DNA of 64,000 bases from Schmidtea polychroa (GCA_044892525.1 CM097885.1:3722001-3786000); one strand, 5' to 3'. Shown: positions 20,729 to 33,345, counted from the first letter of the stretch. Numbers and translations are program-made. The notes: generated by a model not told the origin, from the sequence alone.

Positions 20729-21454
20729 AGTAGGTAGTTAGGAGCCCGCTGCCGCAAATACCCCCCGGGGGGGGGCGGGTCTGCGGCAACTTTTGATTAC
20801 GCAATTGCGGCAACTCACATTTTTTGCTTTCAGGGATTTTTGGTCCAAATTTTTTTTTATCACACTATAGTGAGAGGGTCTCGATGGTCCTGGGATTTTC
20901 AATACAAATAAAATTTTTTCTATACAAAAATCCGACTATCAATAAAAAAGCCAAGGATTTATCACACTATAGTGAGGGGGTCTCGATGGTCCTGGGATTT
21001 TCAATACAAAAAAAATTTTTTCAATACAAAAACGATGGTCCTGGGATTTTCAATACAAAAAAAATTTTTCAATACAAAAACGATGGTCCTGGGATTTTCA
21101 ATACAAAAAAAAATTTTCTATACAAAAATCCGTTTTTCAATAGAAAAAGGCGGTCTCAATAAAAAAGCATGGTAATTTAAGGTCTCAGGATATTTTCAAT
21201 ACAAAAAGGCAGTATACACTAAAAAAGAGTGGTAATTTAAGGTCTCAGGATATTTTCAATACAAAAATCCGACTACCACTAAAAAGGCATGGAATTTTCA
21301 GACTATAGTGAGGGGGTCTCGATGGTCCTGGGATTTTCAATACAAAAATCCGATTATCACTAAAAAGCATGGATTTTTCTAGGTCAATTCAGGTGGGTCT
21401 CCTTGGTCCTGAGAAAAAGGTGGTCTACACTAAAAAAGCGTGGTAAATTTTTTC

Positions 21455-23340
21455 AATTAAAGTAAATAATGGTCCTAAAAAATTAAATTACAGTAAATTA
21501 TGGTTCTAAAAATTAAATTAAAGTAAATAATGGTCCAAATTTTTGAATTACAGTAAATTATGGGTCTAAAAATTAAATTAAAGTAAATAATGGTCCAAAT
21601 TTTAAAATTAAAGTAAATAATGGTTCTAAAAATTAAATTAAAGTAAATTTTGGTTCTAAAAAAATTAAATTAAAGTAAATTATGGTTCAAAATTTTCAAT
21701 TAGAGTAAATAATGGTCCAAATTTTTCAATTAAAGTAAATAATGGTCCAAATTTTTAAATTAAAGTAAATTATGGTTCTAAAAATTAAATTAAAGTAAAT
21801 AATGGTCCAAATTTTTCAATTAAAGTAAATAATGGTTCTAAAAATTGAATTACAGTAAATTATGGTTCTAAAAAATTAAATTACAGTAAATTATGGTTCT
21901 TAAAAATTAAATTACAGTAAATTATGGTCCAAATTTTTCAATTACAGTTAATTATGGTTCTAAAAAATTAAATTAAAGTAAATTAAGGTTCAAATTTTTC
22001 AATTAAAGTAAATAATGGTCCAAATTTTTCAATTAAAGTAAATAATGGTCCAAATTTTTAAATTAAAGTAAATTATGGTTCTAAAAAATTAAATTAAAGT
22101 AAATAATGGTCCAAATTTTTCAATTAAAGTAAATTATGGGTCTAAAAATTAAATTAAAGTAAATTTTGGTTCTAAAAAAATTAAATTAAAGTAAATTATG
22201 GTTCAAAATTTTCAATTAGAGTAAATAATGGTCCAAATTTTTCAATTAAAGTAAATTAAGGTCCAAATTTTTAAATTAAAGTAAATTATGGTTCTAAAAA
22301 TTAAATTAAAGTAAATAATGGTCCAAATTTTTCAATTAAAGTAAATTATGGGTCTAAAAAATGAAATTAAAGTAAATAATGGTCCAAATTTTTGAATTAC
22401 AGTAAATAATGGTTCTAAAAATTGAATTACAGTAAATTATGGTTCTAAAAAATTAAATTACAGTAAATTATGGTTCTTAAAAATTAAATTACAGTAAATT
22501 ATGGTCCAAATTTTTCAATTACAGTTAATTATGGTTCTAAAAAATTAAATTAAAGTAAATTAAGGTTCAAATTTTTCAATTAAAGTAAATTATGGTCCAA
22601 ATTTTTGAATTAAAGTAAATAATGGTCCAAATTTTTGAATTAAAGTAAATTATGGTTCTAAAAAATTAAATTAAAGTAAATAATGGTCCAAATTTTTCAA
22701 TTAAAGTAAATTATGGGTCTAAAAATTAAATTAAAGTAAATTTTGGTTCTAAAAAAATTAAATTAAAGTAAATTATGGTTCAAAATTTTCAATTAGAGTA
22801 AATAATGGTCCAAATTTTTCAATTAAAGTAAATTAAGGTCCAAATTTTTAAATTAAAGTAAATTATGGTTCTAAAAATTAAATTAAAGTAAATAATGGTC
22901 CAAATTTTTCAATTAAAGTAAATTATGGGTCTAAAAAATTAAATTAAAGTAAATAATGGTCCAAATTTTTGAATTACAGTAAATAATGGTTCTTAAAATT
23001 GAATTACAGTAAATTATGGTTCTAAAAAATTAAATTACAGTAAATTATGGTTCTTAAAAATTAAATTACAGTAAATTATGGTCCAAATTTTTCAATTACA
23101 GTTAATTATGGTTCAAAAAATTAAATTAAAGTAAATTAAGGTTCAAATTTTTCAATTAAAGTAAATTATGGTCCAAATTTTTGAATTACAGTAAATAATG
23201 GTCCAAATTTTTGAATTAAAGTAAATTATGGTTCAAATTTTTAAATTAAAGTAATGAATGGGCTCAAATAACTAAATTAAGGTTCTAAAAAATAAATTAA
23301 AGTTAATTAAGGTCCAAATTTTAAAATTAAGTAATCAATG
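21455..23340 (+). repeat. 30-31 bp minisatellite in the left arm
   Basis: Unit approximately AATTAAAGTAAATAATGGTCCAAATTTTTC, with higher-order duplicated blocks; a shorter mirror array lies at about 31690-32615. Confidence 0.95.
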
Positions 23341-29576: not shown

Positions 29577-32500
29577 AAACATTTCATAAAATACAATAAA
29601 AAATACTTAGTCGGTTGTTAGTAACTAGTTGTAGGTATCTGGTTGTTTGAGAGTTAGTTAGTACGTGGTATCATGTTCAAAGTATTTGTTAGCATCTAGT
29701 TAAAAATATTTAGTAACCGATTGTTGGGAACTGTTGAATTATTATTATTATTATTATTATTATTATTATTATTATTATTATTATTATTATATTTATTAAT
29801 ATTATTATTATTATTATTATTAATATTATTATTATTATTATTATTATTATTATTATTATTATTATTATTATTATTATTATTATTATTATTATTCCATTAA
29901 AATTTCCATTAAAAATTAACTTAAAAAATTATTTCATTAAAATTAACTTAAAAAATTTTACATTTAAAATTAACTTAAAAAAAATTTCCATTTAAATTTT
30001 CATTAAAAATTACATTTCTCAAAAAAAGTTGGTGGTTATTCAATCTTTTGATAATAAATTTAAAAATCTTACTTTAATTTACTTATTTAGCTTTAATTTA
30101 AAATTTGAACCATTGGTTACTTAATTTTAAATTTTGAACCTTAATTTTCCTTAATTTATCCTTAATTTACCTAATTATTCTTTATTTCTTAATTTTACAC
30201 CATAATTTACTAAACAACTAATTATAACCCTTATTTTCATATTTAACTAATAATTTCATGTGGTCATTGATTGATTGACGAAGATTTGCATCTAAAATTA
30301 ACATTGAAAATCCCAGAAAACTTTCATCTTAAATTGACTTTAACTTTAATATTTTAGACCATTGATTACTTAATTTTAAAATTAGACATTAATTTACTTA
30401 TTTAACCAATAATTTCATGTGGTCATCTGGTTGTAAGTACTAGGTATCTAGTTGTTATTACTTGGTTGATGATGCTTAGTACCTGGTTGTTGACGGCTGT
30501 GAGTAGTAGGTATCTGGTAACTAGTTGTTAGTATCTAGTTGTAGGTATCTCGTTGTTGGTGGTACTTGGTAGGTGGTAGCTAGTCGGTTGTAGGTACTTA
30601 GTAGTTGGTTAATAATGCTTAGTACTTGGTTGTATGTACTTGGTAGATGGTTGTAGGTACTTAGTAATTGGTAATTAATGATTAGTACCTGGTTGTTGTT
30701 GGTTGTTAGTACTTGGTATCTAGTACCTAGTTGGTTGATAGTACTTAGTAACTAGTTAATGGGTAGGTGGTTGTAGGTACTTGGTAGGTACTTAGTAGTT
30801 GGTAATTAATGCTTAGTACCTGGTTGATGTTGGTTGTATGTACTTGGTAGGTGGTTGTTGGTACTTAGTAGCAGGTAACTGGTTGTTAGTACTTGGTATC
30901 TAGTACCTAGTTAGCTGGTTGTAACTAGTTAATGGGTAGGTGGTAGCTAGTTGGTAGGTGGTTGTAGCTAGTTAATAGGTATGTGGTTGTAGATACTTGG
31001 TAGGTGGTAGTTAGTTGTTAGCTGGTTGTTGTCGGTTGTTAGTACTTGGTACCTAGTTGGTTGCTTGTTTTTGGTTGTTAGTACTTGTTAGATGGTTGTA
31101 GGTACTTAGTATCAGGTAACTAGTTGTTAGTAACTAGTTGTAGGTACTTGGTATCTGGTAATTGGTTGTAAGTATCTGGTTGTTTGAGAGTTATTTAGTA
31201 CGTGGTATCATGTTGAAAGTATTTGGTAGCAGGTAACTGATTGTAAGTACTTGGTAGCAGGTTGTTAGTAACTAGTTGTAGGTATCTGATTGTTAATACA
31301 TGTTCATAAGTTACTGGTTGTTGGTACTAAGTTGTTGGTTTGTTGTTGAATTATTATTAAAATTTGTCTTTGAAAAATATTTCATAGAAATTTTCATTAA
31401 AAATTATCTTAAAAATTTCCATCTAAAATTATCATTGAAAAATATTTCATAAAAATTTCCATTAAAAATTAACTTAAAAAATTATTCCATAAAAATTTCT
31501 ATTAAAAATTACTTAAAAAATTATTTCATAAAAATTTTCATTAAAAAATTTCAATTCTCAAACACCTTCTATTATTTCAACTTTTTGTTAATAAATTTTA
31601 AAATCTTACTTTAATTTACTTATTACATTACTTATTTAAAAATTATTACTTTAATTTACTTATTTAACTTTAATTTAAAATTTTTGACCATTGATTACTT
31701 AATTTTAAAATTTGGACCTTAATTAACTTTAATTTAATTTTTTAGAACCTTAATTTAGTTATTTGAGCCCATTCATTACTTTAATTTAAAAATTTGAACC
31801 ATAATTTACTTTAATTCAAAAATTTGGACCATTATTTACTTTAATTGAAAAATTTGAACCTTAATTTACTTTAATTTAATTTTTTAGAACCATAATTAAC
31901 TGTAATTGAAAAATTTGGACCATAATTTACTGTAATTAAATTTTTAAGAACCATAATTTACTGTAATTTAATTTTTTAGAACCATAATTTACTGTAATTC
32001 AATTTTTAGAACCATTATTTACTGTAATTCAAAAATTTGGACCATTATTTACTTTAATTTAATTTTTAGAACCATAATTTACTTTAATTTAAAAATTTGG
32101 ACCTTAATTTACTTTAATTGAAAAATTTGGACCATTATTTACTCTAATTGAAAATTTTGAACCATAATTTACTTTAATTTAATTTTTTTAGAACCAAAAT
32201 TTACTTTAATTTAATTTTTAGACCCATAATTTACTTTAATTGAAAAATTTGGACCATTATTTACTTTAATTTAATTTTTAGAACCATAATTTACTTTAAT
32301 TTAAAAATTTGGACCTTAATTTACTTTAATTGAAAAATTTGGACCATTATTTACTCTAATTGAAAATTTTGAACCATAATTTACTTTAATTTAATTTTTT
32401 TAGAACCATAATTTACTTTAATTTAATTTTTTTAGAACCATAATTTACTTTAATTTTAAAATTTGGACCATTATTTACTTTAATTTAATTTTTAGACCCA

Positions 32501-33345
32501 TAATTTACTGTAATTCAAAAATTTGGACCATTATTTACTTTAATTTAATTTTTAGAACCATAATTTACTGTAATTTAATTTTTTAGGACCATTATTTACT
32601 TTAATTGAAAAAATTTACCACGCTTTTTTAGTGTAGACCACCTTTTTCTCAGGACCAAGGAGACCCACCTGAATTGACCTAGAAAAATCCATGCTTTTTA
32701 GTGATAATCGGATTTTTGTATTGAAAATCCCAGGACCATCGAGACCCCCTCACTATAGTCTGAAAATTCCATGCCTTTTTAGTGGTAGTCGGATTTTTGT
32801 ATTGAAAATATCCTGAGACTTTAAATTACCACTCTTTTTTAGTGTATACTGCCTTTTTGTATTGAAAATATCCTGAGACCTTAAATTACCATGCTTTTTT
32901 ATTGAGACCGCCTTTTTCTATTGAAAAACGGATTTTTGTATAGAAAATTTTTTTTTGTATTGAAAATCCCAGGACCATCGTTTTTGTATTGAAAAATTTT
33001 TTTTGTATTGAAAATCCCAGGACCATCGTTTTTGTATTGAAAATCCCAGGACCATCGAGACCCCCTCACTATAGTGTGATAAATCCTTGGCTTTTTTATT
33101 GATAGTCGGATTTTTGTATAGAAAAAATTTTATTTGTATTGAAAATCCCAGGACCATCGAGACTCTCTCACTATAGTGTAATAAAAAAAAATTTGGACCA
33201 AAAATCCCTGAAAGCAAAAAATGTGAGTTGCCGCAATTGCGTAATCAAAAGTTGCCGCAAAAAAAATCGTGCCGCAAAAAAAAAGTTGCCGCAGACCCCC
33301 CCCCCCCGGGGGGGTATTTGCGGCAGCGGCTCCTAACTACCTACT
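29577..33345 (-). repeat. Right inverted arm (about 3.8 kb)
   Basis: Reverse complement of the left arm, with fewer 30-bp units and a shorter C/A-rich block. Confidence 0.93.

Follow-up and report, generated by a model that had tools for sequence, protein, structure and literature searches.

A gene-less Maverick-type element with multi-kilobase inverted arms in Schmidtea polychroa, and its palindromic relatives

The stretch of Schmidtea polychroa DNA considered here (GCA_044892525.1 CM097885.1:3722001-3786000), referred to below as the window, is 64,000 nucleotides long and contains a 12.6-kb mobile element that starts with AGTAGGTAG, ends with CTACCTACT and is probably a gene-less derivative of the Maverick/Polinton elements (Table 1). 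Most of the element consists of two inverted arms. From either end inward, these are made up of the terminus with its C-run/G-run motif, modules A, B, C and D, a stretch resembling B and C, and an AAT microsatellite. A comparison of the element with itself gives 290 inverted pairs, the longest of 1,282 nt (99%), 764 nt (100%) and 615 nt (100%). The mismatches in four ungapped blocks (12/1282, 2/764, 2/615 and 2/231) amount to 99.4% identity over 2,892 nt of sequence outside the tandem arrays, and a fifth block has 7/317. The left arm is 1.1 kb longer than the right, chiefly because of tandem-array copy number: the 30-bp unit is present in 63.6 copies on the left vs 31.6 on the right, and the AAT unit in 64 vs 52. 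An earlier reading, made from the sequence only, had described these ends, the CACCTC duplication and arms of about 4.9 and 3.8 kb, all of which agree with the measured values. It had also described the arms as being built of ordered repeat modules; the order stands, but about half of each arm is non-tandem sequence.

Does the element encode a protein? There are 50 stop-to-stop frames of at least 45 amino acids (aa), the longest of which has 121. None of the 50 reaches the Pfam cut-off (the one weak match scores 17.9 bits), a tblastn search with the ten frames of a coding relative has no match in the element, and no Rfam family reaches its gathering score in 20000-34000; the earlier claim that there is no intact open reading frame is borne out. 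Polintons have been defined as all encoding a protein-primed family B polymerase (pPolB) and a retrovirus-like integrase (PMC5499653). No frame for either is found in the window element, from which the morphogenesis genes (capsid proteins, protease and ATPase) are all absent as well. Because both defining genes are absent, the element is treated as a non-autonomous derivative and not as a strict Polinton. Translation with the ciliate code (table 6) yields dozens of frames, in all six frames, with 1-69 reassigned stops each; this code was rejected, since AT-rich non-coding DNA gives such frames and the real genes of the family are open in the standard code.

The element is a single true insertion. 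The DNA that flanks it is itself a repeat, with 386 first-look candidates in the genome, and the five paralogues fetched all run uninterrupted over the site with a single CACCTC-like hexamer. In 5/5, the alignments of the left and right flanks overlap by exactly six bases. It is the continuity of these genomic paralogues, with one hexamer in each, that points to one insertion. Four public sequencing runs were aligned to 20000-34000; among the pieces listed there are only short contigs (~70-136 nt), which bridge no junction and no empty site; run depth mirrors only the repeat copy number there, and the result speaks neither for nor against the structure. Directly to the right of the element are an o179 homologue (35347-35686) and, before it, pPolB remnants (33787-35445) that share 48-63% of their aa with the coding copy. 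The element therefore sits inside the polymerase region of an older Maverick relative.

The ends of the element are those of a large family. A genome search with the terminal 132 bp returned 1,667 first-look candidates, and the 40 that were scored match at 90-100% identity; at all 30 of the loci fetched there is a sharp boundary at AGTAGGTAG with unrelated flanks. The 17-mer AGTAGGTAGTTAGKAGC occurs 916 times in forward and 914 times in reverse orientation (1,830 in all), with 0 + 0 occurrences of the reversed-sequence control. Terminus counts slightly overstate insertions, because certain small contigs look like alternative versions of chromosomal regions: small contigs (C102 and C56) and C1 share identical flanks, as at loci L013/L017, L026/L029 and L018/L027. 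The first 100 terminus places listed contain 19 pairs of adjacent +/- termini no more than 30 kb apart, one of them the window copy. The 18 others and one pair on C2 delimit copies of 1.0 to 29.4 kb, with perfect 6-bp duplications in 17/19 and one mismatch in the remaining two. With the window copy itself and six more that had been fetched on other grounds, 24 of 26 duplications are perfect and two have one mismatch; at this base composition, simple arithmetic puts the chance that two random hexamers agree at about 6 in 10,000. The sequence-only reading, which hinged on other copies having 6-bp duplications, is upheld in this respect. The window copy and the family thus have the 6-bp target-site duplication of Maverick/Polinton elements, together with terminal inverted repeats (TIRs) that have 5'-AG...CT-3' ends and a short reiterated terminal motif. 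Copies of only 1.0-2.4 kb with good duplications occur among the sampled pairs, which means that the family has members resembling miniature inverted-repeat transposable elements.

Two further features concern sequence at the ends or resembling them. A sub-terminal motif, GC(C/A)GCAA ... C-run/G-run ... TGC(G/T)GCAAC, is found at 20745-20790 in the window and in the first 72 nt of the 30 loci. Its halves change together (16 C/G, 13 A/T, 0 mixed and 1 unscored), a pattern that marks two sub-lineages separated by one compensating event and not repeated covariation. The motif is a possible hairpin or paired binding site; when the first 102 nt of three ends were folded as single-stranded DNA, the z-scores were -0.57, -3.27 and -1.49, which are not convincing alone. 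The other feature is the unit of module D, which on the opposite strand resembles the terminal 13-mer and is oriented opposite to the nearby terminus. The window has 25 matches to this 13-mer with at most two mismatches vs 0.69 expected, although these are one repeated unit and count as roughly one coincidence, not 22. Such units could be decoys for binding or old ends.

A relative with the same ends carries genes. In this 16.1-kb copy the TIR is ~1.1 kb long and has modules A, B and C in the order of the window copy, to which its first 304 nt are 90.5% identical; its module B array is far shorter, ~0.45 kb (with up to 10 copies listed per repeat family). Pfam identifies a pPolB (PF03175, E 1.7e-32), an rve integrase (1.6e-8) and a Pox_A32-like ATPase (6.6e-7), and there are weak rve_3 and chromodomain matches in the frame that follows the integrase. 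Thus, the terminus and TIR modules of the window element are common to a copy with the polymerase, an integrase with a chromodomain-like tail and an A32-like ATPase, as in Maverick/Polinton elements. Six frames have no assignment, and a Pfam search of these at E up to 1 gave noise only, with no match to a protease or minor capsid protein. One of them, of 408 aa, is nearest to double-jelly-roll-like clusters (0.98), a lead only, with recognition below the usual level; the other five have no assignment. In the genome as a whole, a pPolB search gave 8,819 first-look candidates, and the 91 that were scored all pass the cut-off and include many open frames of 1,300-1,484 aa.

What is the ~4-kb middle of the window copy? 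A genome search with 25620-29570, in which 36 candidates were scored, found the segment 25620-29229 as a +/- inverted pair at 15 loci and as a single copy at seven, and the middle is one copy of a segment that siblings have in both arms. Three complete siblings have perfect duplications and arms of ~7.5-9 kb. The closest sibling is a copy on C16, with arms 93-98% identical to those of the window copy. Its palindrome reaches ~427735/428671, so that the unique centre spans roughly 0.9 kb. Between the ends of the window-homologous arms lie 1,894 bp with a G+C content of 20% and a longest frame of 50 aa, and the ten frames of the coding relative have no match in the 20 kb fetched around this copy. 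Its right terminus was not found, the arm being cut at ~435773 by unrelated DNA, so that it gives no duplication. Perfect duplications also flank two older copies (11.9 and 12.1 kb) in which no frame exceeds 102 aa and the modules follow each other as in the window copy, to which the sequence is 72-89% identical. Since siblings and older copies share it, the gene-less palindromic architecture represents a lineage and not an accident. Within this lineage, the window copy is among the younger members: its arms are 99.4% alike, compared with 94.6% and about 93% in the two ~12-kb relatives, and the earlier claim of a recent insertion holds relative to these. Within the inner arm, an imperfect inverted repeat of ~105 nt (25881-25986 / 28966-29085; 78 nt at 79% and 27 nt at 96%) encloses a unit of ~3.2 kb, which may be an ancient nested element or transposon that the arm now carries with it when copied.

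Palindromes are not confined to gene-less members of the family. In a copy that is palindromic over its whole length of 7,403 bp, the arms are 98-99.7% alike, each has the TIR, o179 and pPolB from residues ~280-290 to 923, and the centre lies inside pPolB at GCTATA-GAGGA-TATAGC. A second palindrome, of 16,328 bp, has arms of 8.06 kb at 97.9-99.9% identity, each with the TIR, o179, a pPolB match to residues 1-923, o323 and 2.9 kb of repeat-rich DNA. The pPolB reading frames match between the two arms, and no integrase, ATPase or capsid-like frame is present in this copy. At its centre is a mini-element of 279 bp (L107:3873-4151, C1:48757873-48758151) that has both family termini with module-A-like sequence only between them, and flanks that are mirror images (ctgtttat / ataaacag) and not a direct duplication. 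In these palindromes, the centre is either a short inverted repeat or a nested element whose ends are inverted. Matches to pPolB form -/+ pairs 9.0-10.35 kb apart at eight loci and no +/- pairs; the paired-pPolB palindromic form seems to have spread. A further fragment of the family occupies window positions 3503-5829. Its right terminus is at 5817-5829 (- strand) and its module A at 5381-5706; beyond these come reverse-oriented pieces homologous to the middle of the element (26447-28298). No left terminus for it was found within the window.

How did the window copy come to have only one inner arm? A short segment, X, is followed in it by a perfect inverted copy, X', and the alignments that flank the X' junction overlap by 7 nt. 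Siblings carry X once per arm, with a spacing of 2,082 bp in the C16 copy, and X' is therefore read as a footprint, the last piece of the lost right inner arm. Beyond X' is a 277-bp filler that is nearly identical to a nearby retroelement sequence; the other 38 scored genome copies of this sequence are at most 96% identical. Since the filler was copied from 10 kb away, it argues for templated repair at the window locus. After insertion, the centre of the palindrome would have been lost from the window copy together with ~3.4 kb of right inner arm, retroelement DNA would have patched the break, and the tandem arrays would have drifted in copy number. With the sibling content added back, the original copy would have been ~17.8-18 kb long. 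The exact 12.6-kb form has probably never transposed, the deletion being post-insertion.

Taken together, these data favour, with a probability of roughly 0.8, a non-autonomous, gene-less Maverick/Polinton derivative whose arms were made by fold-back copying, which then spread, and whose copy in the window was deleted in situ. Such an element would keep only the parts that act in cis, the AGTAGGTAG terminus and the ordered TIR repeat modules. Being gene-less, it must rely on family proteins supplied in trans, and the protein-primed polymerase, rve integrase and packaging ATPase would come from elsewhere. Integration into the pPolB remnant of the older Maverick would have made the CACCTC duplication. 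To form the arms, a growing strand would fold back at an internal inverted repeat and copy itself, turning one end into two; in this way, a one-ended or deleted genome would become a two-ended palindrome, and palindromes would then spread by transposition. The fold-back may take place during the strand-displacing replication of the element itself or during repair of a chromosomal break. Several palindromic forms recur at many loci and have duplications of their own there, so that palindromes must be mobile as such, and the relatives in the family suggest that fold-back copies have been produced repeatedly and are still spreading. The complete palindromes measure 16.3, 17.1, 17.1 and 18.4 kb vs 16.1 kb for the coding copy, sizes that would fit a packaging limit. 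The sequence-only reading had proposed a non-autonomous Maverick parasite that keeps near-genome length by means of repeats and is replicated and integrated in trans. The lack of genes and the shared terminus, duplication and modules agree with the first part, and replication and integration in trans would be its consequence. Near-genome length would suit the 17.1-18.4-kb siblings and the 16.3-kb palindrome, not the window copy; tandem repeats alone do not account for it, as length in the family is mostly palindromic duplication of one end.

Several observations count against this interpretation. An autonomous element with the same termini had been anticipated and a pPolB/rve/ATPase copy was found, but its pPolB and integrase are each split over two frames, and an intact helper with exactly these termini is therefore putative. 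In the coding relative, the terminus is of the A/T sub-variant (C/G in the window copy), and both module D and the inner arm are missing. Fold-back in replication and fold-back at a chromosomal break are indistinguishable in the present data. The centre junction of the 7.4-kb palindrome is found only at its own locus among 40 scored candidates. The genome search with the filler scored 40 of 3,057 candidates. Lastly, the 1.0-2.4-kb and 7.4-kb copies have good duplications, and near-genome length is thus not needed for a genomic copy with intact ends, although shorter copies can arise by later deletion, as in the window copy.

Could the host have built the arms? Breaks in inserted Mavericks might be repaired by hairpin-primed or template-switching synthesis that anneals in the opposite TIR, in which case the extension of the arms would be a repair scar. 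The window copy has a local templated filler and a 7-nt microhomology, and the centre junction of the 7.4-kb palindrome, with no second locus among the 40 scored candidates, points the same way. On the other hand, the same architecture is found at many loci, three of the gene-less copies are complete and have their own perfect duplications, and there are 15 loci with paired inner arms and eight with similarly spaced pPolB pairs; whatever their first origin, these forms moved as palindromes, and host repair is an unlikely source of the architecture as a whole. A host role of a different kind may add to fold-back copying and spread: transcribed palindromes could give long hairpin RNA and, through it, small-RNA silencing of Mavericks, with the double-pPolB form targeting the polymerase. 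The near-perfect inverted arms of 4-9 kb are a suitable structure for this, yet gene-less arms match TIR sequence only, and such a role is improbable. A fold-back chimera of long reads, or another artefact of assembly, would also produce inverted arms, and the aligned runs do not span the element. An artefact is nevertheless hardly credible, given the exact flanking duplication, the five continuous paralogous sites and the independent loci that have the same architecture, each with its own duplication; nor would a read chimera give arms that differ in array length, footprint and filler.

Foldback/Galileo-type elements are mobilised by Mutator-like element (MULE)-like or P-type transposases, and their duplications are 9 bp in Foldback and 7 bp in Galileo. 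The window element could be thought to belong to such a cut-and-paste superfamily (Foldback/MULE-like or P/Galileo-like) and to resemble Mavericks at its tips only. Its TIRs are ordered arrays of tandem-repeat modules and form most of the element, as the long, internally repetitive and unstable TIRs do in Foldback, Galileo (P superfamily) and Tetris, with little unique DNA remaining in elements such as Galileo and Foldback in the published descriptions (PMC3573991, PMC4168063). By contrast, the duplications here are of 6 bp and perfect in 24/26 pairs, a copy with pPolB, rve and ATPase shares the first 304 nt and the order of modules, and neither the element nor its C16 sibling has a transposase-like frame. 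Foldback and Galileo differ in transposition machinery and duplication length and have no known link to a protein-primed polymerase, which makes this origin exceedingly unlikely. The arms are Foldback-style, as the sequence-only reading had it, insofar as they are long modular TIRs; the likeness is one of architecture only, at elements with Maverick ends.

A further parallel may be found in adenovirus. Defective or incomplete adenovirus particles contain inverted duplications of one end, and their genomes rearrange or multimerise to near packaging size. Like the genomes presumed here, defective adenovirus genomes and under-length helper-dependent vectors are linear and replicated from a protein primer. 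The packaging domain of adenovirus is located near one genome end (PMC5033970). The defective genomes are, however, extrachromosomal in infected cells, whereas the palindromes described here are germline-integrated, have target duplications and form lineages. By extension, the palindromic copies might be germline fossils of Mavericks of the defective-interfering type, rescued by snap-back, selected for capsid length, packaged and, as satellites of the coding virus, integrated anew, with repeat arrays and terminus-like motifs that compete for helper proteins. This idea is tentative. In the current view, Mavericks are replicated as linear genomes from a protein primer and may also form particles, neither of which has been directly observed. 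If the defective-interfering reading were true, the family would offer sequence-level evidence that a linear virus genome is the form in which an animal Maverick replicates and is packaged. Whole-length palindromes and gene-less lineages of coding-element length could serve as a genomic read-out of replication and length constraint.

The arms described here are long for Mavericks. Values of 46-1,447 bp (mean 402) have been given for TIRs of vertebrate Mavericks (PMC8097293) and of 100-1,500 bp for Maverick/Polinton elements in general (10.1101/2023.08.22.554363). In contrast to these elements, the window copy has no genes and arms of 3.8-4.9 kb, while those of its complete siblings extend to ~7.5-9 kb; Maverick TIRs can thus reach 8-9 kb. 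In butterflies, a preprint describes polintons with gene-bearing TIRs of ~2 kb that have grown inward, giving two copies of hexon and adenain (10.1101/2025.02.07.637071). Those TIRs also duplicate internal sequence, for which the 16.3-kb double-pPolB palindrome is a stronger case. The butterfly elements are described with a full gene set and ~2-kb TIRs, as opposed to arms of 4-9 kb that are gene-less or hold only o179, pPolB and o323. No account of gene-less or whole-length palindromic Mavericks was found in the literature searched; non-autonomous Polintons catalogued in Repbase or Dfam may include such elements. Surveys that expect TIRs of at most 1.5 kb, or that require pPolB and integrase, would miss or mis-file these copies. 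Moreover, long palindromes may be hotspots of breakage and templated repair, as the window copy suggests.

Table 1. Positions of the element, its parts and its relatives. Positions without a prefix are those of the window; C1, C2 and C3 denote genome sequences.
Feature	Position	Strand	Remarks
Whole element, probable gene-less Maverick derivative	20729..33345	+	12,617 bp
Target-site duplication, left copy	20723..20728	.	CACCTC; one copy in paralogous empty sites, 5/5
Target-site duplication, right copy	33346..33351	.	CACCTC
Terminus AGTAGGTAGTTAGG, then sub-terminal inverted motif	20729..20800	+	GCCGCA-C(n)G(n)-TGCGGC
Left arm	20729..25613	+	4,885 bp
Module A	20840..21449	+	48- to 100-bp repeats; also in TIR of coding copy (90.5% over first 304 nt)
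Module B	21450..23367	+	30-bp unit array, 63.6 copies
Module C	23476..23680	+	13/40-bp repeats; also in TIR of coding copy
Module D	23736..24734	+	ACC-rich 21-bp-type repeats; no counterpart in coding copy
Module-D-unit matches to terminal 13-mer	23761-25581; 26292-26332; 29609-31268	-; -; +	
(AAT)64 microsatellite, left arm	25261..25452	+	right-arm partner (ATT)52 at 29738-29893
Single surviving inner-arm copy	25614..29229	+	+/- inverted pair at 15 other loci
Unit within inner arm, ~3.2 kb	25881..29085	.	bounded by imperfect inverted repeat of ~105 nt
Segment X	29070..29135	+	
X'	29223..29288	-	66-nt perfect inverted copy of X, 87 nt from X
Filler, 277 bp	29295..29571	+	276/277 identical to 39424-39700; 6 nt after X'
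Right arm	29577..33345	-	3,769 bp; 30-bp array of 31.6 copies at 31662-32611
Older, diverged Maverick remnant around element	33787..35686	+	pPolB, then o179 homologue
Local filler donor	39424..39700	+	tail of Ty3/gypsy-like integrase region; 10 kb away
Coding relative	C1:94259439-94275499		16,061 bp; duplication AATATA; same terminus
Complete sibling	C3:127505249-127523647		18,399 bp; duplication ACCAGA
Complete sibling	C1:77945415-77962563		17,149 bp; duplication TGATAT
Complete sibling	C2:113829751-113846820		17,070 bp; duplication AATAGG
Whole-length palindrome	C1:264964907-264972309		7,403 bp; duplication GGCCAA
Double-pPolB palindrome	C1:48749838-48766165		16,328 bp; duplication CCCCGC

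The neighbourhood to the right of the element is rich in other transposons, and the stretches at 38786-39700, 40048-42798, 45152-46099 and 50771-54018 are all mobile DNA. They include a Ty3/gypsy-like integrase (rve), a pogo-like frame with DDE_1 and HTH_Tnp_Tc5 domains, hAT dimerisation domains, a 916-aa frame without a Pfam match and more pPolB fragments (50771-53025).

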